This document shows, piece after piece, positions 9,301 through 29,495 of a DNA stretch of 38,542 bases (position 1 is the stretch's first letter; every line of letters starts with the position of its first letter). The notes below the pieces were generated by a model. It saw only the letters and a list, made by a program, of their open reading frames with translations, did no database searches and was not told the origin of the DNA. The DNA is taken from NCBI GenBank assembly GCA_009602725.1, contig WELB01000001.1, forward strand, positions 1,074,860 to 1,113,401, read 5' to 3'. A program made the position numbers and the translations under genes. The stretch comes from Spirogloea muscicola. Its lineage: Eukaryota.

Positions 9301-12300
9301 CCAGCTAGAGACTGTGAGGAAGCTCCCAGCGTTTTGGCTCTCGAACGCGACCTTGAAGACATGGGCCTTGGGCCGTCCTCCAGGTACACATGCCGTGCGT
9401 GCACCTGCCTGATGTACATATGAAGATGAAGTAGCAGCCTACTGCATGATACAAGCCACAATATGTTGCATCTCAAGATTGTGCCTGCATGCTACCAATG
9501 TGCCAGGCAGGGCACTGGAGGAAGTCTACCAGCAAGAGCAGCTGTGAAGTCTCGTCAGGATCAGGAAGACACCGAGAGGAGCAATCATGGTGGAGGCGAA
9601 GCTGCAAATGACGAAGGTGGAAATGGGAGTCCAGGGGAGGTATTCTTGACTGGTAGGAAAGAGCTGATGGAGAGGACCAACAGAAACTTGAGCCCGGAGA
9701 GGGAGCCAGATTATGCTGTTTGGCTTGAGCACCGCAAAAGGAAGTGGCAAGAACTTCGTCAGATGAAGAAGTCGGCAAAGTAAGCAGTAACTCATCTTTC
9801 TGTGCCTTCGACAATGACAAGTAACTGAGCATCCCCCGGCCCTTATCTCTGAAGTCGTCGAAGCAGGTAGACTATTGGACTAATGTAGTCCATCAACCTG
9901 TATAGTGAACTGATGGTTAAGGAGAAGACTGAAGGTAAAGGAGAAGAAGAAGAGGTTTTCAGTATTGACAAATATACAGCAGCTATGAAGATGGAATGCA
10001 ATGCAACATCCTTGTTGCTTCTGATGACAGGGCAGAAGAAGAACAGCGAAGGCGAAGGGAGGGCAATACTACGCCTGACAAGGAACTGCAGAGCAGGGCA
10101 CGTGCACATGAAGGGGCAGGCGCATACTTTAAACAGAAGGAGGCCTCCCTGCTGCGCTCCCATTGGCAGGTGAATGCTGGTCAGTGTTAGAGGTGCAGCT
10201 CTAGGTGCATGAAAACACGAGGGTCTGTTTCTGGCATGTATATTCCACACCTTGACTCGGTCCTGAGACTCAGCTGCTTATGAGTCAATTTGTTTCGACT
10301 TGGTTTACAATCTTCTCGTACACCCACCTGGAAACATGTGCAGGTAATCCAAGTAGCACCTGGCGACAGGCCAGGCAAGTACATTGCATGGGTGTTGGTG
10401 GATCATGACATGTACAAGGTTCCTCTGACCATACCAAGGCAAATCTACATGAACACTCGAGGGGCCGGGTCGGATGATGCAATTGGGGAGAAAGTAAACA
10501 GGACTCTCCCCCATGGTCGCCCTACTCTTAACCTGCTTCAGGTACTAAATACTGATCCAAGCTATACACTTCAAGCTGCAGATGTATGTCAGCTAAGCAC
10601 TTCATGTCCACAGCCGCCTCAAAGCCAAGGTTGGTGAAAGATTATGTGAAGGCTTGCGCATCATGTGACGGTGTTATGACAAGAAGTCCACTGCAGGTCG
10701 TTGTGGCAGAACAACAGTTCCGAGAGGCAACCAAGGAACTGGCTGCTCACCTTACAGACCCAGATGTGGAGGTTAGCTCTTACATGCTGCTGACTGCAAC
10801 TTGTTGGTCCTATGCAAGAAAGTCGGATGCATCAGCGTGTCTGCCTGGAGAGCTAGGTGTTGTTCACGAGATAATAAACATTCGTGTTGTGGAACAGCAT
10901 TCACGGCTCTCCTGAGATGTCCTTCTTGTCCTTCCTTGCAGGGCATTTATGAAACTCAGGTGCCCCTGGAGATCAATGCCGTTCTTGAGATAGGCTGTGT
11001 CTGTGCAATCACGGCAAAGGCTAGGCATCGAAGCCTTCAAGAGGGCTGGCTCCTGGGTGAGCTGACTATGAAGACCACCACAGAGTGCCCGTACCTATCT
11101 TCAGAGGCTAGCTCTTCCTTGCTTGAAGGACTTGCCATCAATTACTTCTTCATCTACCACAGGTACATGACACATGCAGCACCTTTTGTTGCTCATGTTT
11201 GTGCATGCTGTCAATCAGCCGAAGCTGGTATATTACATCTTGTAGGCACTGTGAAAGGCAGCGGCAACCATTCCAGACAAAGGGGCACCAACATGCTTGA
11301 TCATCCTTACACACACTTGGTTGCTGCCAAGCAGAGGAGTAAGACGGTGGGCTTTGATTTCTGAGAGAGATAGGCCTTGATTCTGATCCTGGCAATGGTT
11401 TGTTCACTGCAGTACCTGCGACTCTAGGGGCTTGTTTGCAGTCTATTACCCAGCCAGTGCCTCCCTCCTTGTTCTCATTCAGAGCCAGACACGAAGTCAA
11501 GACATATCAGTACCCGTACTGGAGCGCCAGTTCCAAGTTGCAGCTTTGTCTTCTGGCAATGTAGTGCCACCAACCGCCATAGCCTGCAAGGTAGACCACA
11601 AATTTACCAAGTGCAATTTGTAGCCCATCAGCTTGTTCTTAGTGCTCTACTGTAGTAAGTCCGCGAGAAGCTTAAGCAACGTCTGTGAGATATATAAAGG
11701 TAAAGCGAATACTGTTTCACAGGTGGAATACATGCATACATCCTTGGAGGCAAGGGGCCGAATCCAGCAGGTTATTATGGAGCTGAGGTGAGCTTAGCAA
11801 GTTCATGAGTGCTTGCATGGTATTCTTGGTGTTATTTATTTATTGTGGGCTGCGATTGGGGTAGTCAAAGAGCATTGTTAAATTAAAGATGTGTTCTCAT
11901 TTACCAGGGACACGCACAGAGGCCCCGTTGTGGCCCTCCTTGAGTGCCCAAGACTTGCATCAGCCACTCACAGCTTCACACTGGATGCAAGATCTGTACC
12001 GGCTCTGGGAGATCTGCCTTGTGTTCCAGTGCCATGCAATGCTCGTGACAGCCATTATCAGGCACTCTATACAACCCATACTCACTACTCTTTTGCAATT
12101 TGAGAGCCATCAACTTACTGCCGAATCGAAAGTATCAGTCTTCCATGACAAAACTGCCCATAAGCATACCCAGCATTGCTAAGCGCTGTGATATACTTTC
12201 CTGCAGCTACCTACATGTGGCACTAACATAACCAGATGTGTGCTATGCCATATAGGCCCTCGGGTGGCAGCAAGTAGCAGCTCGCATTGCAGTCCATCGC

Positions 12301-15300
12301 TGCGCGTCGTCAGGCCTCTATCTCCGTGAACACATAGCCATGTCCCGCTATGCTCATGTACGGACTTACTGACGTCACCTGGTGGTCTTCATGTTCTTCA
12401 TATTCTGGAATTTCATATATTCACAACATTCTAATTGCAGAACACTCAGCTTCTATTAGCATGCGCAGCTGAAGCTCCGTCTCAGTCACCTACTCAACCT
12501 CTTCAGGTGCCCTTAGGCAACTTCGAGCCAGACTGGGTGCTCTTCACAGCGGATATGTTCTTTGCTCGAGCTCTCAGGGACAATCAGCAGGTCAGTATTC
12601 AAGCCGTAACATGGTATACTTTTGTATCCTTCAATCATCAGGTTAGGTTGTCAGTGGCGATCAGTGCAGGAATCAAGCAATGCTCCAAGCTATCATAGTC
12701 AGCAATTGCAGCTATGATGCCCCTTCAGGCAGCTGCTTTCCTTTCATAATACAGGTTGTTGCAGCGGATTCTTTGCAGAGACCACGACTGTTCCACATAT
12801 CATGGCTCTCAAGTGGACATAGTAGCGCTTTCTCATTGACAAACTAGGACTGCATCGGCACTAATCTCTACTGTGAGCTGGTTGCAGTTACTTTGGATGT
12901 CAAACAGCGGCCTACCTGACCTTGGTGGAGTGATTGAGGAGGAGGAGGCCAGCTTCGTAGATGAGGTTGACTGTGCATCATCACTATCCTCATAGGAGCT
13001 TTGCTTGAAGCCTGGATAGGCCAGCCTGTGCAATAGTTTAAATGGCACTAGTCAATGACTGGTGTAATAAATCGACTCCAATTATACTGACCTTAGGTAG
13101 AGCAACCGGAGCTGGTGTATCCTGGAGCGTATCGCCAGGTCGTCATAGAGCTCAAGGTAAAGTTGGCAAGTCCCCACACTTGTATTTGGGCCAGCTAAAT
13201 TGCTGTAATGGAAAACACGATGTAAGGATAGTTGTGGGTGGTCCTGTCCTGATTGACTTTGACTGCTTCACCTTCTCCACGCTGCATACCGGCATGCTCC
13301 AGGTGCACCACCTTGCAGTCAACGCGCTCTTACGAAGCAGCCAGATTGACGACATGGAGGGAGGCTCAGTGTTCGGTGGACAGCCCACGGACGACTTTGA
13401 GCTGCCGCTTGGTGGAAGCGTGGCGAGTCACGACGACTCGCTGTCCTGCAGCCCAGCGTTCCGCGTTCTCAAGCAGATGGTCATGGGCTGGGTGCGAGAC
13501 GCCACTGAGTTCCACAACATGTTTGCGGACGAGCTTCTGAAGCACGCGTACAGATGGCTCTGCAGCCCGCAGTCCAAGTTACACGACCCTGCCCTTCACA
13601 GGGTCCTGCAGAAGGTGCACAGCACTCTCTGCTGTTTGGTTGGAGAAGCCTTCTGCTGAGCAGTGATTGTCGATTCATTATCTATTTTAAAAGACATGGC
13701 TTCATAATGGGGACATTTGCATGTCGGTAGACTCTATGTCAGTATGCTATTTCCTGCTAGACCTGAGTCTGACAGCACACTGTGTTGGTGTGCCTTTACT
13801 GCTGAGGCAGGTGATGAAGAAGCTGTTTGCCTTGCTTCTTGCTGAGATGCGAAAGCTTGGAGCTACCATTGTCTTTGCGGACTTCTCACGGATCATCATA
13901 TATACAGGAAAGCACACCAAGTCTGCAGCTGAGGGCTACTGCCAGTACCTTCTCCAAACATTGGCTTCCAGGTTTGACTGCTGTCCTACCATGGTCATGA
14001 TGGGAAAAGGCCAGATCTGGCAGTTTCTAGTCACATGCACTGCGCCCCACTCCTTGCCTCTTTCATGCATGCTTACTTGAGTTGCTACTTTATTGTTTGA
14101 TTTCTGCCGGTCTGTTAATCTGCGTCATCTGGTGCTTGTCTCAGAGAATTATTTGAGTTTGTGACACTTGTACCACAACAGTACTGGCACTCTTTGCTTC
14201 TAATGGATCAGGTATATGCAGCTTCTATATTCATGAAGGCATTTGCTTAGACTGCAGACGCCATCATCGCTCATATGAAAGCTTGGAGGAGCTAATGCAA
14301 ACTCTAACGAATATGTGCAATGCCCCCCCAGTATAATTACGGCGGCATACCGATGAAGCTGGATGATGAGGACAAAGGCCAAAGTGTTGGAGATTGCATG
14401 GAGGACAACAGTCCATCCATTTTGTCCAACTGGAACATTGCCGAGTACCTGCCTCTCGCCACACGAGTAAGAAGTCAGCAAGGGAGCTTTGCTGCAATGG
14501 TGGACCTGACTTACATCCCTGGCAAGAGTTTCAGATTCAGCCATGTGCAGTAGCGCTTGCTGTGCATGGGCTCAACTTTTATGCGTCCTCTCTAAGAGGG
14601 CCACGCAAGTAACACTTCGTCAAATATCCTCGCTGCTCATGTAGGAATACTTTGAGGTTGTCATTGGAGAGTACATATATTTGCCGTGGAAGCACGCCCG
14701 CAGAAAAGCAGCTGAAAGAGCTGCTGCGTGGGACAGTGGTGATCCACCCGCCACAGCTGTTGCAGCTACAGAGATGGAAAAGGATGCCTCCGACTATCTG
14801 CAGACTCAGGTATGACAGCTCCGTGGGATGATCAGATTGTCATTGAGTTATTGAAATAGTGGCTGAATTGAACCTGTCTTTGACTGTTACTTGTCCCGCG
14901 GAATACGATCTCCTACTTGCACTGAATGTGCACGTCATTGCTGGCCAGTTGATGTGGGGATGCGGCCGAGGCTCCCAAGATGATGTGCACGTAGTACCAA
15001 ACCACAGTTCATTGAAGCGTGACGGTGGGCTGAGTGTGGCATGGTGCAGGTCGCGACATATTTCACAGGGAAGATGCTGAGGATTGTGCACAACATACAG
15101 AACTTTGTGTCTGCCAACAAAGGGGGTGATGTGGGTGACCCCAAAGCCGCTGCTGCTTGGAAGTTCCCCAAGCTCGCTGGGTCGCATCTAGAACTCCGCA
15201 ACCCAGCATTGGAGTTCATCAAGTCCATCTGCACAGTCATGTCGATTGACGAGGCTGTGTCCTACCAAGTGATGGTACGCGTGCTGCTGGCTTTATTTAT

Positions 15301-16506
15301 AAAAGAATTGAGATACTACCGAGCTTCTCGTCATACATCAAGCTGGTGGTCAGGCAAAGCATCAGTCCTGCAAGTACTGCAATGTGAGGGCAAGTGACAG
15401 GCATAATGGGCAGCCTTCACTCTCAAGGGAGGCACTCATACCCATCGCAGGTGATGAGACGGAACCTGCTGAAATTGATACACGTGCGGGAGTTCGCCGA
15501 GGAAGCCGTTTTTAGGAACCCGTGCCTCTCCTTCACACTGCCAAATGTCATCTGCAGGTAAGAGCATCCCAGCTCGATACGTCTTCACTAGCTCATGTGT
15601 AATGTATGTAATAGCACGGTGCGGTGATGTCCACACTCCCTTAAGTTTCAAGTTCGCCTTCGTCTTGCACTATAGCAACTCCTGATGCAGTTGCATACTG
15701 AGAGCCAACACCTTGAATGCCTGACAGCTATTGAAATGCCCAATCATTGTGCACTCTCGCAAATCCTACATTCAATCTGCATACTAAGCAGACACCTTGA
15801 CATTGATGCTCAACAGCTATTGCAATGACTGTCAAGATCTGGACCTCTGTCGAGACCCGTTGCTTCTGAGCAAGCAGTGGAAGTGCGCCGTGCCACAGTG
15901 TGGCCAGCCGTATAATCGGGAATGGATTGAGAATGCACTACTTCAAGTGAGGAACAGCATCTCAACCCAGCAACTAATAGCAACAATGGAAAACGTATGC
16001 ACTAGCAAGGGACAATGTGTGGCAGCCTCTGATAGTTGCTGCATACGTTGTTCTTCACCATGTGTTGCAGATTGTGCGACAGCGGTGCCGCCTCTTCCAG
16101 CTGCAGGACCTGCGATGCACCAAGTGCCGACAGGTGACCCACAGCCACATTTTCTTGATCTCACTGTGGAAGAGCAACAAATGACAGGCCTGCACTGTAG
16201 CTGAATATCAATACGCATTCTCCCTCCAGCAAGGTGCAATGCAGTCAACTCACGAACTTTGAGCAGGAGCAGCAAGGCTTATGGCAGAGCTCCTCATGCT
16301 GACTGCTCCTTACGAGCCCTTCTGTTGCGGCGCAGGTCAAGTCCGCCCACCTGGCTGATCAGTGCAGGTGCGCAGGTGCCTTTGAATGTACCGAGGCCCC
16401 TGACGCATTCCGCCAGCGGCTCAAGGTGTTCGCAAACATTGCGGCTTTCCACGGCTTTGAGCTGCTCCTGGAGTGTGTCCAATGGCTGCTGCAGACGAGC
16501 CCTTAA
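327..16506 (+). CDS. POL2: DNA polymerase epsilon catalytic subunit A (family B polymerase), about 52 exons
   Basis: Manually spliced exons (first 327-481, 598-697, 892-957; last 16336-16506 ending TAA) are collinear with plant POL2A/TIL1 as I recall it. Motifs: Exo[16 protein letters not shown] (~2640); Exo[13 protein letters not shown] (~3230); pol motif [11 protein letters not shown] (~5025); CysX CAAC..TC..ICMRE; motif [15 protein letters not shown] (~6600); motif C ELDTDG (~7000); C-terminal CysA/CysB (CNDC..CAVPQC; CTKC..CRC). Introns are GT-AG except two GC-AG. Confidence 0.98.
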
Positions 16507-16738
16507 GACTGGGCCTGGACAAGCCAGCGTGAGTCATAGTACGACGACGTGTGTATGACAAGCTCCGAGTGCCACTCTTGGACAATCCGAGTTGGATCAG
16601 TGGTAGTGCAGGGAACCAGTCCCCTGACCTAGTAGCTCCCGTTCCCTACACATTGCTGGCAACGAGCCCTTCCAGCGCGAGCTTACTTAAGCAAGCATGG
16701 ATCATAGTACAAGACGTGAACATGACAACTCAGTAGTG

Positions 16739-16809
16739 CCACCCCATCTCAGATTGTCCAAGAGTGCCACTCTTGGACAATCACTCTTGGACAATCTGAG
16801 ATGGGGTGG
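16739..16809. repeat. 28-bp perfect inverted repeat (hairpin) with an internal tandem duplication, downstream of POL2
   Basis: CCACCCCATCTCAGATTGTCCAAGAGTG (16739-16766) is the reverse complement of 16782-16809. The loop holds a second CACTCTTGGACAAT. GAGTGCCACTCTTGGACAAT also occurs at 16567-16586. Confidence 0.9.
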
Positions 16810-17970
16810 TGGCAATGCAAGAGACTGATCTTCTTGCATTCTCTGACCTGACAGCCCTCTCCCTCCCCATAATCGGCTAGATGCTGATACTAATGTGCAA
16901 ATAGCTCCATGTTGGTTACGGCAAGGTGTGTAGCACTATGCACAAATTTAGCAGTTGATATAACTGGCTTATGCGCGTATTCAGATACTTGCATAGGATC
17001 TATCTTAACATGGCTGCGAGGAGGCCTGCACTGCCGAGTCAGGCATAGGTACATCAAAAGCCTCATCTCAGCAGAAGCCGGCACATCAGTACTCAGAGCT
17101 CGTGAAGCAGGTGCAATGCACGCCCCTAAGATTGAGCTGGCACAGATGGCATTGAGAATCTGGTGTTGCCCTGCCTTGACGGTGGTTACCAGTAGCAAAT
17201 CATGGGCAGCACTCGCACTTGCCACTCAGATCCACGGGGGCTCAGGCTGCCAGTCACAAGCCGCCAGAGCTTGTCAGCAGGCCTGGGACTGGACCATGCA
17301 TGTAAGCGGTGGGACAATCAGACCTGTGGAAGTATCCTCAAGCATGTCTGAATGTCACAAGTGCATGGCTGGCACACATGGTGGTCAAAGGAGTTCCAGA
17401 TTTCAGCTGGCGAAATGGGCTCCAGCGTGTGACAGGTGTCATTTCGTCTTCAAGCCTGACATGAGCAGCAAAGCTGACCTACCCTAGCTCTACAAAACTA
17501 GCTCAATGTGTAACTATGTATGAGCCATCGGCCAGGGGCCAACGAGCCAGGTGGAGCCAGCGAGCTCCGTGGCAAAGCTACACCCTACGCTAGCATTTAA
17601 ACAGGCATCCAGAAGTAGGTTGCAACCTGTGGAGTGACCAGGGCCCCCACCTCAGTCTCTCCTGGACGACTGTAGCAAGATTTGCGCACCGCCTGCAAGA
17701 AGCTTGCACAAAGGACAGCTTGGGGACATGTTTGAGGAGGTGCTGACGGGATAGCACAGAAGTCCGTGGCTCCTCTCACTGTGGGCTGCTATCTGACCCC
17801 ACTTCCAATGCCGACTTCCTCCGCCATCTTACCCTGCTTGAATGCAATCACCCACAGTGCCTCCTTGCAGATGCACGCAAGGAAGCCTGCTTCACAAGGC
17901 TCGCAAGCCTGTGCAGAGAACATCATGAACCCTGTTCAAGTCGGACCTGCAAAGCTCGCACCCTTTCCCA

Positions 17971-20747
17971 TCAACCTGCTTGCCGCAGAGTGCAGGCCAC
18001 TGTCTGGGCCCACATTCGGAGGTGCTGCTTCATAGCAGCAGGGTGATTGCTATGGTCCGGTACAATCCACGGCTCTTCCTTGGGGGGCGAGGAGCTCAAC
18101 GAGTCCAATGACTGCCTGCAAAACCTTGGCAGGTCCTCGCTCTGCGTGTCTGAGTATGAAGCATCTCCCTCGCTCTGCACAGACTGATATTGCACAGGAT
18201 AACCCGTTCTCAGTCTTCAATGGTGCCAACCGGTGTCGCAAATCACCGACGCAGGCCAGCGGGACGTACCTCATGACTATAAACAGCTGTTACTACTTGA
18301 GAAGCTAAAGTCATGCAAAACCCACCTTGGCAGGGCTCATAGGGGGGCTGTCAGCGTTTTGCAGCCTTCCTGGAAGCGTTTGCTGACGCAAGATTCGCTG
18401 CTGCACCGTCTCCACAGCTTGGTACAGCCTCAATGCAGGTAGAGTGGAAGCCATCCTTGGGCTGATGACGCTCTGATCAAACTGCACCAGTACCACATAA
18501 CAAGCATGGTCATGGACTGGCAGTGTCCGGACAAGGACTGACTGACTTAGACCTAGGCTGGTGGAAAACTCACATTACCACCTTACCAACTGACGTGTAG
18601 ATTTCGAGTGGAACTGAACCTGTCACCTGTAGCACAAAACCATATGGTAAGGAGCTGTTTGTTAGCTCACGCCTAGGACAGTGAGCAGGAACAGCCTAAG
18701 CGAAAGTGTCATACACAGTGCCTGCAAGTTCCTCTTGCATGAGCCTTGCACAGGATTCTGATCTTCGCCGCCAGCATTCACCTGCAGCAATCATCTGAAG
18801 TGCGACGAACTTGTGACTGTTAAGTGACTAAAGTGACAAGAATGTTCCTAATGCACAAGGCCATAGATGTGTGGACAGGGGTTGAGATTATCATTCCGTG
18901 TGGATTTTGTATGGCTTCAAACGTACCTTGAAACCAAGATCGAAGAACCCGCGCAACTCTTCAATGTCAGCGTCAGTGAGACTCTTGGCTTTCTCAGGAT
19001 ATGCACTTTCCTGCTGCTTCTGAGTGCTTCTACCCATGCAAACATCGGCAGACATACTGCAATAACACCAGCAATGTCATGCAAGCATCAGCAATCTAGA
19101 CAAAGGTCTGCTAGGCTAGAGAGAGGTAGAATGGATAGCTAAGCATGCTGCCAATCATGAGTAGAACAACGTTGGGAAAGGAACACAGAGCTCAGAGATT
19201 ATATAAGGCATTTAGAATATTTAGTGGAATAGTATGTGAAGCCCAGCAGTACATGCATAGCAATACAGGATGCCATGTAATCTATGAAAATTACAGTCAA
19301 AGCATAGCAAGCAGACAAGGCATCATGAGAAGATACATAGAAAGTATGACAATGACAATTATTGGTGCGCTAGCATTGGACTATGGCAGCAAATGTGTCA
19401 ATTCACGACCTAACTTCAACCATTACGAGAACGTCAAAGAGGCATGACCCAAAAATTCCAGGTAGATACGGCAGCTGGAAGAAGGGACATTCCCCGTAAA
19501 TGAAGGACCTGAAGGTGACGACCACCAGATATGACGATTGCATGCAATCAAGAGAATGTAATCACCTTCGTGTTCGGCGAGCCCTGAGAGCTGGTCTGAC
19601 ATGCCGTCGGGAGTCAGAGCCTTGCATCGTGGCCCATCGAACATCCTCTAGGCTCCTTGACAACCTTGGCTTTCTGCCATATCGCTCCTTTCTTTGCCGT
19701 GGCAGAGTTGGGCCGTTACCATCTGGCGCTCTCTGCTCATCTCTTGAAGCTTCGCTTTCCTCGTACTTGTTCTCCTGGTTCTCTGCATGTCACACAAGCC
19801 AAGCCAGACGACATAAGAATATGTTGACAAAGGCAGCGACATTGAAGAACAAAGATTTAGACCACGTTTCATTTCTTCTTGCAATCAAATGATTACCCAT
19901 GCAGACTACGACAGACCAGTGTGGCTAGGCAGCAATGATGTCGATCCATATGGATGAAAACTTGCTGGTCAACAAACACCACATAATATCTGACCTCTTA
20001 CACATAATCATGACAATCATCACTTCCGAGGAAAACTGCTCTAAAATAGGGACGAAGACACACGCAGGCAAAATACGAAGCTCCGGCCAGGTTGTAGCTT
20101 ATTGCACATGCTACTGCATTTGCATACAACAACTTTCAAAGTACTACGACATCAATTTCTTGCACTACAGCATGTGATTTCAAAGTAACGGGCTGACAGC
20201 CGACCTTGTATGGGGGAGAGTACATCCCTGCTTGACTTTGGCCAGGCAACATTGCTGGTGAACCATCCCTCCTCAAGAAGGGTGAGCAGGGTGGGCGATG
20301 GCGTCTTCTTTGAGGAGGACGAAAGGTCCACTTGCACCCTGGGCTCTTTTTCCTCTTCAGAGACTGGCGCTGCTACGTCGAGTCCAAGAGCACTATCAAC
20401 CTGGTGGTCATCAGATGCACCTTGCTGGTCCTCCAAGGCCGCTTGCTCGGTACCGTATTCAGTACTGATTTCAGTTTCTGCCAAGACAGGGGTATCTATG
20501 CTATTTTTCCCCGACAATTCGAGAGATAGCTCATCGCTGTCGTCACGAACGCTGCACATGGCACAGAACATCAGAGAGCATGTCAGAGCATGTCAGAGCG
20601 TGTCTCAAGCATGAGCGACGTCAACCGTCCGCAAGGCTGCCTGAGAAGCATGCGCACGAAGGCCTGCGCCGCACACCTGCTGCTGGTGGCGGACATGCCC
20701 GGGCACGGGACCCTGGGCGCGGGAGGAGCGCGGCCGTGGAAGCACAT
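17971..20747 (-). CDS. DUF1685-family protein, 6 exons
   Basis: Phase-consistent exons 20747-20677, 20551-20205, 19782-19566, 19029-18927, 18481-18326, 18174-17971. They encode KSLTDADIEELRGFFDLGFKF...MASTLPALRLYQAV and a C-terminal NHPAAMKQHLRMWAQTVACTLR, matching plant DUF1685 signatures (KSLTDxDLxELKGxxDLGF, TLPAL, KxxLKxWAQAVAC). Start codon is uncertain. Confidence 0.85.
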
Positions 20748-21164
20748 GGAGGGCGAGGCCCGCACGGAGACGGAGGCTGGCGGCGCAGGGTCAGCGCCCC
20801 GGCGGCGGCGGCGACGCCGGCCACGCGCGTGGCGCGAGCATCGTGCGCTGCGCGCGCCGCGGCGGCGGCGGCGGCGGCGCTGGTCTGAGTCGTCGGGCGA
20901 GAGAGGGCCTGGCGTGGCTGGGGGGTGGTGGGCGGGCGGGCGGGCCAGCGGGAGTGGAGCGGGCGAGGGTGGGGGGAATCCACCGCCGTGTCCGGGAACA
21001 GCACCTTCACCGACGGAGCCGCAGCCGCACCACGAACGGGCGGCGCCGTTGGGAAGTGAGCTCTTGCCTCGCTTGCTTGTTTGTGCCTTTCAGCTTTTCG
21101 GCCCCTTTGGGACCTTCTCGTCAATCCTTGTCCGGCTGGCTTCTCCACAGCCAGTGCCGTAGAT

Positions 21165-21325
21165 GAAGAAGCAAGCGCGGCCAGATGGACTGGTGGCTGG
21201 GAGAGGCCAGCCCAAAAGGAATGGACAAGGACAGAAGAATCCTGGTGCTAAGTACTAAGACAGCAGCAAGGGGACTCTCAGTAACCTCTAGTCTGAAGAT
21301 GCAAGTCCGAATAGTAGGTTGGAAG
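21165..21325 (-). mobile_element. 3' fragment of RLE-type non-LTR retrotransposon (tail copy 1)
   Basis: Minus strand reads ...PTYYSDLHLQTRGY* (stop at 21278-21280), followed by a UTR containing TTGTCCATTCCTTTGGGCTGGCCTCTCCCAGCC and a pyrimidine-rich end. Confidence 0.7.
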
Positions 21326-21350
21326 GGTCTTCTCTGTCCATTCCTTTTGG

Positions 21351-21526
21351 AGAAGTGGCACTCCCAATGGGGGCAAGGGCTGCGAAAAGCCAGCCCAAAA
21401 AGAATTCACAAAGGTTCAGAGGGGCCTAAGAGCGGTGAGCAGCTACAAAGGGGCCTGAGGATGCTATGGTAAAACAGGGGGAGGATGGATCACTCAGTAA
21501 GTACGAGTGAGGAGCCTCAGATCCGA
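21351..21526 (-). mobile_element. 176-nt retrotransposon tail inserted antisense into another tail, 5-bp TSD (TTTGG)
   Basis: Minus strand reads SDLRLLTRTY* (stop 21494-21496) plus a UTR ending GTGCCACTTCT. It is flanked by TTTGG at 21346-21350 and 21527-21531. Removing the insert and one TSD copy restores TGTCCATTCCTTTTGGGCTGGCTTCTCCCAGCC. Confidence 0.8.
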
Positions 21527-21589
21527 TTTGGGCTGGCTTCTCCCAGCCACCAGTCAATCTGGCCGCGCTTTCCTTTCACAGCCCCAGCC

Positions 21590-21685
21590 CCCCTTTTTCT
21601 TTTTGGAAGAGCCACTTTCCCTCACTTTCTTTTTGGGCTGGCTTTTCGCAGCCCTTGCCCCCAGTGGGAGTGCCACTTCTTCTCT
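21590..21685 (+). mobile_element. Retrotransposon 3'-UTR tail interrupted by a 19-nt antisense insert with 11-bp TSD
   Basis: TTTCTTTTTGG at 21596-21606 and 21626-21636 flanks AAGAGCCACTTTCCCTCAC. 21627-21680 is a near-perfect reverse complement of 21351-21404. Confidence 0.7.
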
Positions 21686-21967
21686 CGCACTTGGCTGGGC
21701 CGCCGGCGGCAGCACGCAACAGCCACCGCCGGACCGAGCTCTGACCCCAACCGACCTAGGAGCCGCTCGACCTGCCATCGACCTTGCTCCACACCGCCGC
21801 CGGCGCCGGCGACGGCGCCGGCGGGGTGGGACCCAACCGGCCGCTTCGCCGGCGACGGCGGAGCCCGTCATTGACGGCTGTTCGGCTCCTGCTCCCCCCT
21901 TTTGTTTTCACAGCCGATTCTTTCATATCAGCAGCCGCTTTCTTTTTTTTTGTTTTGTTAGAGTAAC

Positions 21968-22370
21968 CGCGGCCAGATTACTGGAGGCTGGGAGAGAAAA
22001 GAAAGAGCGCGCCCATTGAGGATATGGGCTGGAACAGCCAGCCCAAAAAAGAAGAAGTGGCACTCCCAATGGGGGCAAGGGCTGCGAAAAGCCAGCCCAA
22101 AAAGAATTCACAAAGGTTCAGAGGGGCCTAAGAGCGGTGAGCAGCTACAAAGGGGCCTGAGGATGCTATGGTAAAGCTGCTATGGCACCTTCGTGCCGGA
22201 AGAAGTGGCACTCCCAATGGGGGCAAGGGCTGCGAAAAGCCAGCCCAAAAAGAATTCACAAGGTTCAGAGGGGCCTAAGTGCGGTGAGCAGCTACAAAGG
22301 GGCCTGAGGATGCAATGGTAAAACAGGGGGAGGATGGATCACTCAATAAGTACGAGTGAGGAGCCTCAGA
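21968..22370 (-). mobile_element. Chain of minus-strand retrotransposon tails
   Basis: 22051-22175 and 22200-22370 are near-identical direct copies of 21351-21520; the latter reads LRLLTRTY* (stop 22343-22345). 21968-22050 holds two further hairpin/tail fragments (GGGCTGGCTGTTCCAGCCC...ATGGGCGCGC and TCTCCCAGCCTCCAG...CTGGCCGCG). Confidence 0.8.
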
Positions 22371-22590
22371 GCCCTAGCTGCTGTCTCTGGCTCTGTCCAG
22401 GGGACCCACTTCCAGGACCCTAGCATCTCTGACCTGCGGCTGCTCAGCAGGAATTACTGAGCCATTCGTAGCTGCTTTGTTTCTTCTTGTGCTTGTTTTT
22501 CTTAGCACTTCCCCTGGCTCCCTTCTCGTACTTTGTCCATTCTTTTTTGGGCTGGCTGTTCCAGCCCCTATCCTCTATGGGGCGCTCTTT
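22368..22590 (+). mobile_element. 3' fragment of RLE-type retrotransposon (subfamily ending SRNY*)
   Basis: 22368-22460 reads RALAAVSGSVQGTHFQDPSISDLRLLSRNY*. UTR has TTGTCCATTCTTTTTTGGGCTGGCTGTTCCAGCCC..CTCTATGGGGCGCTCTTT. Confidence 0.8.
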
Positions 22591-22591
22591 G

Positions 22592-22856
22592 GCTCATGCG
22601 GTCCACGCGCGGGCTGGCCGTGCTATGGCTGCTGCTTCCGGGTCTCGGCAAAGTGCCGCTTCTCCTGCTCCGAGTTACTCTGATCTGCTGTTGCTCACAC
22701 GTGGATACTGAGCAGCCATCTGCATCTCCCTCTGCACCATCTTGCACTTTGTAGTGTAGTCCTTTTTCAGCACCTCTTTCTTTGGCTTTGAACATTGTCC
22801 ATTCTTTTTGGGTTGGCTTTGCCAGCCCCTCTTCTCTATGGGCGAGCTCTCTCTCT
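22592..22856 (+). mobile_element. 3' fragment of RLE-type retrotransposon (subfamily ending LLTRGY*)
   Basis: 22592-22711 reads AHAVHARAGRAMAAASGSRQSAASPAPSYSDLLLLTRGY*. UTR has TTGTCCATTCTTTTTGGGTTGGCTTTGCCAGCCC..CTCTATGGGCGAGCTCTCT. Confidence 0.8.
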
Positions 22857-22992
22857 ATGGTAAAACAGGGGGAGGATGGACCACTCAGTAATTACGAGTG
22901 AGGAGCCTCAGATCCGACAGACTAGCTGCCGGGAAGCTATCACCCTGACGAAAGCCAGAGCCCGCAGCGAGAGCACGGCCAGCTCGCAGATG
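22855..22992 (-). mobile_element. 3' fragment of RLE-type retrotransposon (subfamily ending LTRNY*)
   Basis: Minus strand reads HLRAGRALAAGSGFRQGDSFPAASLSDLRLLTRNY* (stop 22885-22887). The UTR is truncated at a CTATGG microhomology with the neighbouring tail. Confidence 0.8.
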
Positions 22993-23372
22993 CCCAAAAA
23001 AGAATGAGCAGAGTACAAGAAGCCCAAGAAGAAGGGGGGCCAGCAAAGCCAGCCCAGAAATGGCCCCCTTTCTCTATGGGCGCGCACTTTCTTCCAGAAA
23101 GAATGGACAATGTCAAAAGCCAAAAAACAAAATACACACAGCCAGGCAGCTAGAGAATAAGACACGACGAAGCACAGGAAGCTCAATACCCCCGGGAGAG
23201 GCCAGCCCAAAAGAAGAAAGAAAGTGCGCGCCCATAGAAGGGCTCAATGGAAGGGCTCACTTTCTTTGGGCTGGCCTCCAATAAAGTCTTTGCTTCCGTT
23301 TGGAAGAGCCACACTCATTCTTCCCACAGCCAATGCTTTCCTCTTCTCTATGGGCGAGCACTTTCTTTTTTC
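22993..23372. mobile_element. Further nested tail fragments, including a 33-nt antisense insert with 7-bp TSD
   Basis: Minus strand has PRGY* (stop 23183-23185) plus UTR. CCAGAAA at 23054-23060 and 23094-23100 flanks TGGCCCCCTTTCTCTATGGGCGCGCACTTTCTT. More tail motifs occur at 23200-23240 (-), 23260-23280 (+) and 23340-23372 (+). Confidence 0.75.
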
Positions 23373-23914
23373 CAGCCTCCACACGGTCCCGTCATCGGAG
23401 AGATTTCGCATCTCGGTCCTGCCTAAATGCGCTTCCCCCAGCCCACCAGCTGTGCGGTCTCCAGCAGATTCTTTCGATTCTCTTCTTATCCGTCTGGCGA
23501 GCCGGCCGCCCGAACAACATGCACGACACGTGGGCTTTAAGGATAATGCCGCCCACTCCACCGTCTGCTCAAACGCCGTGGCCCGCTACCACGCGGCACG
23601 CAAGTCGTGTCACTGCGGCCTCTGGTGTCCTCTATGCGTTGCGGCGGCTTTCCCTTTTCTCACATCCGCGATTATCTGCTGCTTGTGCGTGGCGCCTCCA
23701 TGTAGCTGCCACCGATACTCCCCGCCTCTGGCACCAAGTTGTAGCGAGCATGCTACCAGCAGATGATCCATGGGTGCAGGAGTTGGAAAAGCGGCAAGCA
23801 CTAGGTGCCAAAGCTTTCACACTTATCTAAAGCACCTCACAACCAGAGAAGTATATAGACTTCTGATGGACGTAAAACGCATTGTCATGGTGAATACGTT
23901 AGAAATCTGAAATG

Positions 23915-26900
23915 TCAGCTTGAGACCTTGCTACGAATTTCTGTCGAGGATATGTCCATACGAAAGTTCTCTTCCGGGATGGCCTTGAAGAGATCCGCAA
24001 TTTCGTGTGGTACATCAATATCAGAGAGCACCTGCAGCCCCTCGTGAGGAAAGGTAGGAAGTCAGATAGCAAGCCCCCGAGGCAGCAGGGCCTTATGTGA
24101 GGCTTACTGCACCGACAAGATGTCAAATTGGAGATGACAATACATCAAGTGGTTAAGAAGCTTCTCACCATGAATTTGCCATCTACTAGGCGGCCAGCAA
24201 CAAGGAAGTCACACCCTTGGCCTTTTATGTCTGCGAGGGTGTCCAGCATCTTTTGGAAGCTACTATCATAGTACTTGGGCTGCAACCGTGCACAGGCTAG
24301 CTCACAAATCAGAACAGAAAGAGCGGCAGGGAGCACTTGAAGAGCTTGAAGAGCTTTGATATTACTTTGACGTTGCTGGCTCAATCATAGCAAAGATCTG
24401 TGGCATTTCGAAATTTGTATAAGGGTCGTCATACTGGTCATTCTGCTTGCCAACCACCACAAAAACCACGTACATCGACTAGTCGAACGGCAGTGTCACT
24501 TCCAATCACAAATGTGCTTTCTGGCAACAGCTCTGCCTTCTTGAAAAATAGCGGCTGGTTTGTAATGACCACTGAAAGACCTACATAACCACACATACAG
24601 AGCACGGAGCTCAGAATTGACAATAGTGCTAGACACTGACCACCTCATGACCACAATCTGCAGCTGTTGGTAATATTGCCCACTGTAAGCAAAGACAGAC
24701 CGAGCAAGCTGCATCCCATTCTTAAGTACAGTTGTGCTAACCTGTCACTAGTGTCTGCAAAGTATTCTTGTGCAAGTGTATCCAGGACAACAGACTTTTA
24801 TGCACCAACTTGCACATTTCACATCTTCCCCATGTTCTGGGATCTTGACTTGCTAGACAAGTCCACTTACGAGTACACTTACCTCTACGCTCGAATTGAG
24901 ACAACCTTTGCTTGATGACCGTCAGACTCAGAGGCGGTTTATCAGCATTTATAGCTGATATTTCAAAGCATGGGAAGGCATCCACCTGGTTTCTGCAATG
25001 GATTGCAAAGGAATGCGATGATGTGGAAGCCCAGCATGAATACATGTGTCACTTCCTATCCAGCCTACACAAGGTCAGACTGCAAATCTGACCACCAAAC
25101 AGTGCTAAGAGAGAGTCTGATGGTGTACTTGCAAGCTGCATCCAAGAGCTTGAGATGTCCATCATGTAGGGGATTGAAGGATCCAGATAACATAATCCGT
25201 CTTCCATCTCTTGGCGAATCTACTGGCCAGGTGCCTGTTGACGTTGATCAAAGAAAGCAAACTTGTCGCATGAGCAACTAGCCAGAGGAGCTCGTCCTTT
25301 CCTCATCTCACCTGCTGCCAACCTAGCTACTAAGCTGTTCATCTCGTGACAAGAATTTGCAGTAAGATATGCAGCTTGTGTAACACATGATGACGAGTTT
25401 GTGGAGCACATCAAAGGGGTGCTCTGCTTAAGTGCACTTGCAAGAACCTGGCGAGCTGACCATGGGAATTTCCCCCTCAAGGAGCTGCGTGAGCTGCTCC
25501 TCTGCAGAGTACACTGTGTGTTTCTTCTGTACCACCTCCTCACCTTCCTTGAGCTGGATTGGTATTCTTTGATTGACGTTGCAGGCATCAGCTAAAGCCT
25601 GTCAGCTTGGCCGTCCAGAGTCAGTCCACGTTTAAGTTGCTGGCTTGACAAGGAGAGGAAAATATGCGTTGTCACCAACAGATGTTCCTCTCAGGGGTGT
25701 GCCACTACATACTTAGACAATATTCTAATGCAGGTCTGTGCAGATGGATCTAATCGTGCCCGTCAAAATTACCAACAGTAGTGATGATGGGTAATGGTTG
25801 CTTGCTCATTGGCAGTAACATCATAGCTAAATACAGATAAAGGTTGGTGTAAGCTCATTACAAGCACATTGGTCTGTCTGCCTCTGCAGAGGGTCTATCA
25901 GAAAGTCTGTAGGGTATCAGCGAACCTGGAGGACCAGCAGACTGCTGATACCATCCTCCTCTGATCTACTTCTTTCCCCCTGATACAAGGCTGCTACCAT
26001 GTTTGCTGCAAGGAGATGCTAGAGAAGCTATCCTCCTGGTGATGCATCTTGGCCATATCACCTCACAATTGATGCTTGCACGTGAACAGCGATGCCAGTA
26101 CGTGATTTGATTGATCTCAATAACAAGCCAATCAAAAAGAGGCCGGGATTGCCAACCTTGGTCAAGGTCAGCCCATACTCCCACTTTTCTGCCTGAGTAC
26201 GTACTGCCACAAAGCATCTTCGATGCTAGCAGAAACAACACAACCTTCAGCTTAATTAGCGCCGTACTTTGGAAGTGTATGTGCCGCTTTGAAGTGCAAT
26301 GCGAGGAGAATCTGTCACAGCTTATGCACAGGAATCGATAGCCCATTGACATGAAAAGGCTGCACCTGTGAGGTCCTTTTTTGGCAGGGACAGAGGCAAG
26401 AGCGCAAGTGCAGCCAATGCCGGCTACACTGTATCCTGGAAAACAGTGTTTGACAGATCAATAGCTGGTTGTGGCAGTTTCCAAATAGTCTACGAAGCAG
26501 CTACCTGGTGGCTTGCTTTGGCTTCCGAGAGCCGAAACAGATTGTTCCCATCTGTCGCCACTAGCATCTGTCGCCACTGTCGCCACTAGCTATCAATATC
26601 ACTTTAGGACTTGTTTGAACAATAATTGTGCCAGGGGTTTGCGTATGAAACTGTTGACAAGGTACATGCTCATGTCAGATGATGTGTACCGGGTGTAGCG
26701 AGCTTCAGAGCACGATTGTAGGCTGCTACTGCAATGTCATGTGCAGTAGCCTCACTTGTGAATTGCTGAGGTACCTGCACGATTAAATTGTCAATGTAAG
26801 CTTGGGCACTGAGCTTCACAACCTGTCAGGCCAGCTTTGGCCTGACAATCCCAGCAGCTCAGCAGCACCGTCAACAGTAGGTGTTCTCATTGTCGTCGGT

Positions 26901-27455: not shown

Positions 27456-27819
27456 ATGAACAAGCGCCGACAGGCACTTGGACCTACTACTTGTTGCTGG
27501 CCTGCAGGGAGGACCTTGTTGTAACTCGATGGTACTCAGCTACACCATCTGTAGCCGACCTCCTGACTGATCTTTCATTCCCGCCTGCGTGCGTCGCGGC
27601 AGCAGGAGCGGAAGAGAGGTGGAACGCGCGCTCTGTCGGACGACGCGCGGCAACGACTGGGGCTGCTGGCGGTAACTCATCCCGCGAGGGGGTAGTGGTT
27701 GCTGATACTGGCGATCGTGAAGGCTTGCCAAGTGCGTGCCAAGAGAGAGCGAGCTCTAGCGAAGGAGGTGGCAACGAAGGGCCAGCCCAGAAGACACTTC
27801 GAATAACGTCTCGACCCCC

Positions 27820-28265
27820 CTGCACTACTCAGACTACCCCCGCAGTGACCACCTCCTCCCGGCCGCAATCGACACTTTCGGCTGCTTGGGTCCTCGCTTC
27901 CATACCCTACTCGAGAACATAGCGAGTCTGGGATATGCACGACGCGAGGATATGCTCCCAGCCCAGATGGGTATACCGGCAGCCTATCTGTCATTTCTGC
28001 GACGTCGAGTGTCAACCTGTCTGCAACGAGCTCAGGCGTATGCTCTGCATCAGAAAGCTGGTCGAGCCTTAGCTGCTGGCACAAGAGCTAGTCAATTGCC
28101 GTCCGGTATTCGAGCGTCAGCTAGCGACCTCTATGTGCTGACTCGTGGTTACTGAGCGGGTCAGCTTAGCAGCAGGTGACGTACATTTGTCCAATGTGCT
28201 TGCCTTTGTACTTGGCCACACATGGCCTCCCCATCTCTTAATATACACGCATTTTCTGTTCGGCC
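27820..28265 (+). mobile_element. 5'-truncated RLE-type non-LTR retrotransposon remnant (C-terminus plus 3' UTR)
   Basis: The open frame reads LHYSDYPRSDHLLPAAIDTFGCLGPRFHTLLENIASLGYARR...FLRRRVSTCLQRAQAYALHQKAGRALAAG...SDLYVLTRGY* (stop 28153-28155). This resembles the end of the restriction-like endonuclease region of CRE/NeSL/R2-superfamily elements (KxxxY...P.a.(E/D)tfG..G...R.S..LQR..A). Confidence 0.75.
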
Positions 28266-28409
28266 ACCCTGCAAAAGACGGGATACAATTTGTGGAAAAG
28301 CCGCAACATGGGATGACATACCAAAAGCAAAGCCAGTTGCTTCAATGAGAAGCAGTGATTAGCCACTCAGTAATGATCCCATTGTCGACTAGATGCAAGT
28401 GGAGTAGAC

Positions 28410-28545
28410 TTGCAGCTACTATGTCCCACTTGTACGTGCTCACACAGGTTTGATGCCTGCTCCTTTGACATTGTCCATTCTTTCTGGGCTGGCTTTGCTG
28501 GCCCCCTTTCTCTATGGGCGCGCTCTTTCTTCTTTCTTCTTTCTG
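28410..28545 (+). mobile_element. Divergent retrotransposon tail in the spacer of the long inverted repeat
   Basis: AATMSHLYVLTQV* (stop 28451-28453), then TTGTCCATTCTTTCTGGGCTGGCTTTGCTGGCCCCCTTTCTCTATGGGCGCGC and a (TCTT/TTC)n tail. Confidence 0.7.
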
Positions 28546-28557
28546 GCCAGAATAAGG

Positions 28558-28922
28558 AAATGCGTGTATATTAAGAGATGGGGAGGCCATGTGTGGCCAA
28601 GTACAAAGGCAAGCACATTGGACAAATGTACGTCACCTGCTGCTAAGCTGACCCGCTCAGTAACCACGAGTCAGCACATAGAGGTCGCTAGCTGACGCTC
28701 GAATACCGGACGGCAATTGACTAGCTCTTGTGCCAGCAGCTAAGGCTCGACCAGCTTTCTGATGCAGAGCATACGCCTGAGCTCGTTGCAGACAGGTTGA
28801 CACTCGACGTCGCAGAAATGACAGATAGGCTGCCGGCATACCCATCTGGGCTGGGAGCATATCCTCGCGTCGTGCATATCCCAGACTCGCTATGTTCTCG
28901 AGTAGGGTATGGAAGCGAGGAC
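28558..28922 (-). mobile_element. Inverted second copy of the retrotransposon remnant (365 bp)
   Basis: Reverse complement of 27890-28254. I see one substitution (ATA vs ATG, I/M in AQMG(I/M)PAAY). ORF 28657..28971(-) repeats ORF 27886..28155(+). Confidence 0.9.
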
Positions 28923-29170: not shown

Positions 29171-29246
29171 AGGCGCGGCTCCAGTGTGTCAAGGCTCACT
29201 ACGGGCTACCTAGGCGCGGCTCCAGTGTGTCAAGGCTCACTACGGG
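29171..29246. repeat. 35-bp exact direct repeat (period 41)
   Basis: AGGCGCGGCTCCAGTGTGTCAAGGCTCACTACGGG at 29171-29205 and 29212-29246. Confidence 0.95.
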
Positions 29247-29495
29247 TAGCTGCTGCCGCATGGCTGACAAAGCCTGACTTGAATCCAATGTCATCACCAT
29301 GGACCGTCACGCTGGCGTCAGCTGCAAGTTCTTCTGATCAGAGGTGCGACCAAGACTTGACCATAGACCTGCTTGGTGCTGCGCGCAAGCGGCTGGACTG
29401 CTGCCTGCACGCTGTCGCGGCAAATTAGCGCAGGCTCACGACTTTGCCACCTGCTTTAGCTAATTACTGCTCTACTTCCGCTGCTGGCTTTGCAG

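Follow-up and report, generated by a model that had tools for sequence, protein, structure and literature searches.

A nested array of short retrotransposon 3' ends from several subfamilies between genes of Spirogloea muscicola

Transposons are a listed target class of site-specific elements without long terminal repeats (non-LTR elements; PMC4640811). Cnl1 of Cryptococcus neoformans/deneoformans is described as inserting preferentially within itself, forming nested subtelomeric arrays (10.1101/2022.06.10.495668), and is grouped in the cited text with MoTeR, SLACS, CRE1/2, CZAR and FoTeR (PMC12857005). Zepp of Coccomyxa/Chlorella and ZeppL of Chlamydomonas are likewise reported to insert into existing copies, which yields clusters mostly of 3' ends (PMC8226300, PMC3446292). 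Given these precedents, self-nesting is already known behaviour. Here we describe an array at positions 21060-23380 of a 38,542-nucleotide (nt) stretch of the Spirogloea muscicola genome (contig WELB01000001.1; hereafter the window), which consists almost entirely of 33-260-nt 3' ends from ~6 subfamilies of one non-LTR retrotransposon lineage. The array is probably a nest of extremely 5'-truncated copies, produced by several subfamilies of one R2/CRE-type lineage that form a self- and cross-targeting guild.

The likeness to Cnl1 lies in a non-LTR element with a (here predicted) restriction-like endonuclease (RLE), in self-insertion and in nested arrays of mostly 5'-truncated copies, as far as the cited accounts describe them (10.1101/2022.06.10.495668; PMC12857005). 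Whereas Cnl1 arrays are tandem, subtelomeric and described for a single element, in Spirogloea pieces of 33-260 nt from ~6 diverged subfamilies are inserted into one another, in both orientations, within small intergenic clusters, and a site in the 3' untranslated region (UTR) is defined here; the displayed sequence holds no telomere repeat, and gene-like sequence lies on both sides of the array. Zepp is an L1-clade long interspersed nuclear element (LINE) with one 1.5-42-kilobase (kb) cluster per chromosome, probably centromeric, whereas the Spirogloea family has an R2-like endonuclease, as judged from its modelled fold, and many small clusters adjoining genes, two of them 4.4 kb apart and two at sites on scaffold s25. 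With CRE/SLACS/CZAR, R2, R8 and R4 it may share a single open reading frame with reverse transcriptase (RT) and RLE, and it has target-site duplications of variable size in common with them, in the terms of the cited texts (PMC12278014, PMC6895275), and the predicted endonuclease region adds a fold match to R2 proteins. Those elements, however, target host multicopy genes (spliced-leader RNA, ribosomal DNA), whereas the likely target in Spirogloea is the family's own tail. Trypanosomatid CRE elements mostly end in poly(A), in contrast to the T/C-rich Spirogloea tails, which terminate in TTTC/TCT repeats.

An initial annotation of this DNA had reported at least seven peptide-bearing tails in 21165-23372, and seven coding-end stops (TA[C/T]TGAG) are indeed found there (21283-, 21499-, 22348-, 22455+, 22706+, 22890-, 23188-), one of them closing a tail of three codons only (RGY-stop); half of the window's TA[C/T]TGAG words (10/20) fall inside the 3.5 kb of the two clusters described here. 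Four tails that it had singled out each encode exactly 30 residues, RA(L/M)AA-x15-SDLxxL(T/S)RxY-stop, with zero indels, although pairwise their DNA is only 46-67% alike and 13-20 of the 30 residues are in common. Their RA codons lie at 22368+, 22619+, 22977- and 28063+; the positions 22592 and 22992 given earlier are piece starts, and the tail placed at 28064 is real but belongs to the second cluster, beyond 21165-23372. Several subfamilies are present, as had been proposed, but three of the seven tails represent one subfamily (95-98% identical, 100% over 123 nt). These three are separate insertions because their 5' ends differ and each has its own junctions, and the separate junctions of the tails agree with the earlier view that the array did not arise by local tandem duplication. 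Pieces in both orientations do abut, but most joints are between halves of copies later split by insertions. No RT-coding part is present: the RT-bearing relative P0013 gave no tblastn match in the window at E<1e-3. By their terminal 60 nt the tails of the first cluster form ~6 types (alpha, beta, gamma1-3, delta), and the second cluster adds a seventh; copies are 89-100% alike inside a type and 46-88% between types. A degenerate older copy shifts the left limit of the first cluster to ~21060. Rfam gave 0 matches in the window.

The order in which the pieces were laid down can be read from their flanks. Nine insertions (E1-E9; Table 1) are proposed; their boundaries were picked by eye, direct repeats were then found by script, and repeats of 5-13 base pairs (bp), taken as target-site duplications, flank 9/9. 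Since such short repeats are common by chance, the stronger test is whether the flanks rejoin into an uninterrupted sister copy. The rejoined flanks agree with a sister at 35/41 positions for E1, 44/49 for E2, 42/43 for E3 and 45/46 for E6, and E5 rejoins with one gap. Under a strict version of this test (at least 14/18 on both sides), E2, E3 and E6 pass, whereas 0/1500 random rejoins do. Nested targeting, suggested in the initial annotation, is thereby supported, with five events validated by sister copies and duplications at all nine. The nesting reaches four layers, with E6 inside the beta copy of E2, this inside the gamma1 copy of E5, and this in turn inside an alpha host. When eight inserts are taken out, 367 nt remain of 21040-23419, and older family DNA makes up much of this.

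E6 contains three different copies inside one 10-bp duplication. Its head-to-head joint overlaps by ~4 nt, and at its gamma1/gamma2 joint an 8-nt overlap reads both as gamma1 tail and as gamma2 RSL codons; together these features make the template jumping that had been proposed plausible. E6 is most simply read as a single event with priming at both ends and one jump between templates, the alternative being successive insertions whose inner duplications were lost; E7 may be a second both-ends-primed pair. Classic twin priming uses one RNA, whereas in E6 three subfamilies contribute tails, each of which starts at its own 3' end. The likeness to L1 twin priming, as described in the cited text, is that both 3' ends at a cut prime complementary DNA and give inverted pieces in one duplication (PMC6895275). 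The same source states that 3'-overhang cuts produce duplications and that LINE RTs jump templates without homology (PMC6895275).

A common target emerges from E1-E4, which interrupt hosts of four different subfamilies at one shared position, TT(T/C)TGG^GCTGGC (the caret marks the cut), a T-run/GG step at the 5' foot of a 3'-UTR stem. Three of these events lie in the first cluster and one in the second; E2 lies in sense and the other three in antisense. All of the window's copies of the motif (14/14) lie inside the two clusters, seven intact and seven broken at the T-run just 5' of the motif. The corresponding binomial p of 2e-6 to 2e-4, with 20-40 junctions assumed, is rough, since no left half was located for three of the seven broken copies. 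A GGGCUG(GC)-loop-(GC)CAGCC(C) stem can form in every type except delta. As E5-E9 lie off the shared position, specificity is loose. The analysis as a whole demonstrates family identity, nesting, duplications and the reuse of one site by different subfamilies in both orientations, and the site preference inside this window is real but loose.

The tails lead to a coding family. A peptide at 27835-28152 matches 12 S. muscicola gene models (SM000... names; 64-99% identical), the tail peptide has no Pfam match, and a profile of the endonuclease region retrieves 128 proteins at E≤0.001. P0026, which has a complete endonuclease core, is identical to the beta tail at 33/35 residues; among further models of the same species, P0094, P0074, P0032 and P0058 match gamma2 (79-83%) and P0008 matches gamma1. 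P0013, also from this species, joins an RT with YADD to the family endonuclease region (RVT_1 weak, E=0.099; no PDB sequence match). P0033, a full-length relative of 1096 residues with a similar end motif, has RVT_1 at E=6.6e-19 and PDB sequence matches to two R2 proteins only; it appears to have the CRE-like layout of one open reading frame with an N-terminal zinc finger, RT and RLE and no APE domain, but its Cys/His motif was read by eye, and Pfam finds RVT_1 alone. There are 83 relatives near the length of P0033, including Closterium, Cymbomonas and Porphyridium proteins. In the AlphaFold model of the endonuclease region (pLDDT 85.8), all seven Foldseek matches at E≤0.001 are R2 retrotransposon proteins, and the D, D and K of the predicted PD-(D/E)xK endonuclease are near-invariant in the alignment. 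Endonuclease-bearing and RT-bearing models thus exist, so the tails do not lack coding relatives. With its RT, its predicted RLE and its 5'-truncated copies that keep intact 3' ends and carry duplications, the lineage is classed here as an RLE-bearing non-LTR retrotransposon. DIRS recombinase or Penelope tails were considered and rejected, the predicted endonuclease fold being R2-like instead. We take the element motifs to be CRE-like, a label that reflects this presumed likeness and not a match to the strict pattern. That pattern, C-x1-3-C-x7-8-H-x3-4-C-x9-10-RH(D/N)...E...(R/K)PD...(D/E) in the cited text (PMC12857005), matches no stored protein; a relaxed version matches one of seven proteins tested. 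The motifs keep their order, but the spacing and the R and P residues differ. No named CRE reference was among the relatives returned, and the ESM Atlas gave unnamed RVT_1 clusters only.

The array is not alone. A second cluster lies 4.4 kb from the first, and its 368-nt inverted repeat consists of one copy that sits within another. We considered and rejected a reading of 27890-28922 as a DNA transposon whose 368-nt arms are terminal inverted repeats, since these arms are two retrocopies, one inside the other. A GC-rich gene starts just downstream of this cluster. A possible degenerate minus-strand tail (28258-28400; weak alignment to the alpha type) and, just to the right of the cluster, a ~33-nt direct duplication (29171-29247) were also seen. 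Among the 141 stored proteins, 51 have a piece matching the clusters and 13 have two or more. After P0001, P0018, P0029 and P0035 were set aside as probable splits of a single copy, nine models remain, at eight sites on scaffolds s13, s25 (two sites), s66, s129, s169, s384 and s407, that string together different subfamilies, strands or repeated tails. In P0005, P0010, P0072 and P0077, pieces of tails have become part of host gene models (formyltransferase/cold-shock and AAA ATPase by Pfam, AP2-like and AAA-like by eye); the family therefore contaminates annotation. P0017 (scaffold s353) has nine tandem 83-residue copies of the endonuclease C-terminal region, explained either by satellite-like amplification of a piece of the element or by an error of assembly. 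Of 77 metagenome loci with distant relatives (38 with an endonuclease match), none matches the array DNA, and the UTR motif has 0 matches in viral contigs. In one distant relative (L023:2942-3351) the 3' UTR is succeeded by a duplicate of it that is 85% identical, as well as by additional partial copies. Among L032:1047-1113, L037:55-675 and L072:831-1265, one relative's 3' end meets the middle of another element via a long near-perfect hairpin, and two loci have an opposite-strand endonuclease beside the RT match.

We envision that the clusters likely grow because the element protein preferentially cuts a conserved 3'-terminal motif present in every copy. The endonuclease would cut the two strands at staggered positions, within or next to the GGGCTGGC..CCAGCC(C) hairpin motif, so that a 3' overhang of 5-13 nt is left. 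Either 3' end could then prime reverse transcription, giving sense or antisense inserts, and both orientations would occur at one site because either of the two ends can prime; sometimes both would prime different RNAs and meet head-to-head. The RT would typically stop or jump template within 30-260 nt, and each new tail would add a target, such that clusters self-seed and become landing pads that spare genes and serve the whole guild. This mode of insertion would account for the mixture of strands and subfamilies, so no host function is needed. A further proposal, which is possible although we hold it as doubtful, is that the shared 3'-terminal hairpin motif has two roles, serving reverse transcription as an RNA handle and the endonuclease as a DNA target, that all insertions thereby plant landing pads for all subfamilies, and that one cut with both ends primed by different RNAs stitches subfamilies together.

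Several observations weigh against self- and cross-targeting. At random boundary pairs in the array, chance repeats reach at least 5 bp in 20% of cases, at least 7 bp in 4% and at least 10 bp in 1.3%, and the boundaries had been chosen by eye before testing. E1 and E5 fall short of the strict rejoin threshold on one side, and E4, E7, E8 and E9 have no sister copy in the window for validation. The shared position is used by 4/9 events only: E5 cut the hairpin loop, E6 cut ~60 nt upstream, and the duplications of E7-E9 are of (A)CAGCC, a sequence that also forms the 3' arm of the stem. The three broken motif copies that lack a left half could be RT stops or jumps, not cuts. Compared with shuffled sequences, the hairpin folds at z -2.9 to +0.9 (z<-2 in 2/7 tails), and its 7-pair stem shows one-sided G-U changes and no compensatory change. 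Clusters elsewhere are known from gene models, which cover exons only. In the 77 metagenome loci the UTR motif is carried by none (one chance-like match), and 5/23 loci with a complete endonuclease have any extra 3'-region copy; self-nesting may be lineage-specific, or concealed by short contigs in distant relatives.

One rival account dispenses with self-homing; in it, a loose taste for T-run/GG steps or open DNA upstream of genes acts together with selection: genic inserts are cleared, and copies pile up in tolerant spots, colliding by chance. Both clusters, as read from their flanks, begin within ~200 nt of a GC-rich gene start, 5/9 events lie off the shared position, CAGCC is common (164 sites, 46 of them in clusters) and T-rich tails offer primer pairing. 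Such an account nevertheless leaves four events at one position in four host subfamilies and 7/14 motif copies broken there. The validated events ignore many other T-runs in the tails, and only 367 nt are left once inserts are removed, a good part of them older family DNA; we consider this account unlikely. Mis-assembly of repeats, or DNA-level duplication or recombination, could be argued from the copies that are 97-100% identical. However, 3' ends are intact while 5' ends differ, short direct repeats flank the copies, split hosts rejoin to the base and identical copies have different flanks, which makes this origin highly improbable.

The initial annotation proposed a special "sampler" locus that could act like a small-RNA trap. 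On this reading the host would keep the locus to sample active subfamilies and to produce double-stranded or small RNAs directed at them. The 2.2 kb do contain ~6 subfamilies in both orientations, along with numerous inverted pairs of 34-57 nt that match almost perfectly, and a gene starts immediately downstream; read-through would yield double-stranded RNA. Yet a like cluster lies 4.4 kb away and nine similarly mixed gene models occur at eight other sites, so the locus is not a unique trap; its layout follows from the insertion mechanism and Rfam offers no match, and we regard a trap as quite improbable. The pieces of both clusters, as placed under nested self- and cross-targeting, are collected in Table 1.

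Table 1. Pieces and proposed insertions of the two clusters (positions in the window; a caret marks the cut; "sister" is the intact copy with which the rejoined site was compared)
Feature	Position	Strand	Basis or remark
Degenerate older 3'-UTR copy, left ground of cluster	21060..21152	+	Local alignment to beta UTR; holds one E7 duplication copy, CACAGCC at 21146-21152; no intact sister for E7 site
Alpha tail, coding end ...YYSDLHLQTRGY-stop plus 3' UTR, head-to-head with next piece	21165..21328	-	
Short alpha UTR copy cut at TTTGG^GCTGGC by E1	21329..21576 (halves 21329-21350, 21527-21576)	+	5-bp duplication; sister alpha
Beta tail (SDLRLLTRTY-stop plus UTR), 176 nt, antisense insert E1	21351..21526	-	
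Delta-type tail remnant, then beta UTR 3' half starting at TTTTTGGGCTGGC site	21584..21683	+	
GC-rich piece, inside possible insertion E9	21684..21905	.	10-bp repeat 21574-21583 and 21906-21915
Alpha UTR host cut in hairpin loop by E5	21965..23212 (halves 23194-23212, 21965-21996)	-	7-bp duplication; sister alpha, one gap (31/43 ungapped)
Gamma1 UTR host cut at T-run/GGGCTGGC site by E2	21997..23022 (halves ~22992-23022, 21997-22053)	-	13-bp repeat, partly perhaps tail overlap; sister gamma1
Beta copy (HLRAGRALAA...RNY-stop plus UTR), sense insert E2, itself cut by E6	22054..22991 (halves 22855-22991, 22054-22175)	-	E6: 10-bp duplication CTATGGTAAA; sister beta
E6 composite insert	22176..22854	.	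Starts with 23-nt filler
Beta tail inside E6, head-to-head with gamma1 tail	22199-22369	-	
Gamma1 tail inside E6	22368-22590	+	
Gamma2 tail inside E6	up to 22854	+	Joined to gamma1 via 8-nt overlap 22583-22590
Gamma3 copy (RGY-stop plus UTR) cut at TTTCTGG^GCTGGC by E3	23030..23193	-	
E3 insert, 33-nt antisense gamma3 tail	23061-23093	+	7-bp duplication; sister gamma3 at 28463-28505
Right end: short gamma tail (-), short gamma-like tail (+)	23213..23377	.	
Right end: delta tail	23264-23326	+	
Right end: 41-nt gamma2 tail between two CAGCC copies (E8)	23332-23372	+	No sister copy to validate E8
Second nested cluster	27740..28922	.	Host (-) copy 28922-28547 plus 27792-27740
E4, 754-nt insert splitting second-cluster host at TTCTGG^GCTGGC			Begins with 99%-identical (+) copy, last ~110 endonuclease-domain residues; ends in gamma3 tail; no intact sister of host in window

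The GC-rich piece of ~220 nt has zero tblastn matches to the stored proteins and no sister copy that validates E9; its source may be the 5' end of an element, a captured gene start or a different short element. The DNA of the window is of eukaryotic kind and has short introns, and the intergenic status of the array is a reading of its flanking sequence, which places a minus-strand gene with its start near 20900 to the left and the 3' end of another minus-strand gene near 23915 to the right. NCBIfam and Pfam yielded no name for these genes apart from a weak DUF1685 match in the left one (18314-18574, E=5e-4, under cut-off); the right one we presume to be like plant nucleotidylyl-transferases, a name that no library gave. 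Further left, an intron-rich plus-strand gene at ~9400-16300 has a DUF1744 match (E=7e-24), a domain that we take to be typical of DNA polymerase epsilon catalytic subunits, and 16573-16819 contains a 14-38-nt unit repeated in short copies, direct as well as inverted, which may be a small foldback element.

What is new here is the organism, the cross-targeting of subfamilies via a shared UTR motif, the use of both orientations, the very short inserts and the small intergenic clusters. We found no account of this family or target in Zygnematophyceae in the literature searched, which did not include Repbase, the Spirogloea genome paper, supplements and most subscription papers. A host-defence reading would matter more if true, and it has no support here. 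In practical terms, the clusters corrupt annotation, as tail pieces are spliced into host gene models. R2-type proteins are under development as gene-insertion tools, and if the target is the element's own RNA-binding motif and either strand can be loaded, the Spirogloea element would be a useful comparison for them. Taken together, our analysis adds a streptophyte alga near land plants to the few organisms in which self-targeting LINEs are known and provides a base-level candidate target, common to the subfamilies, that is testable in vitro.

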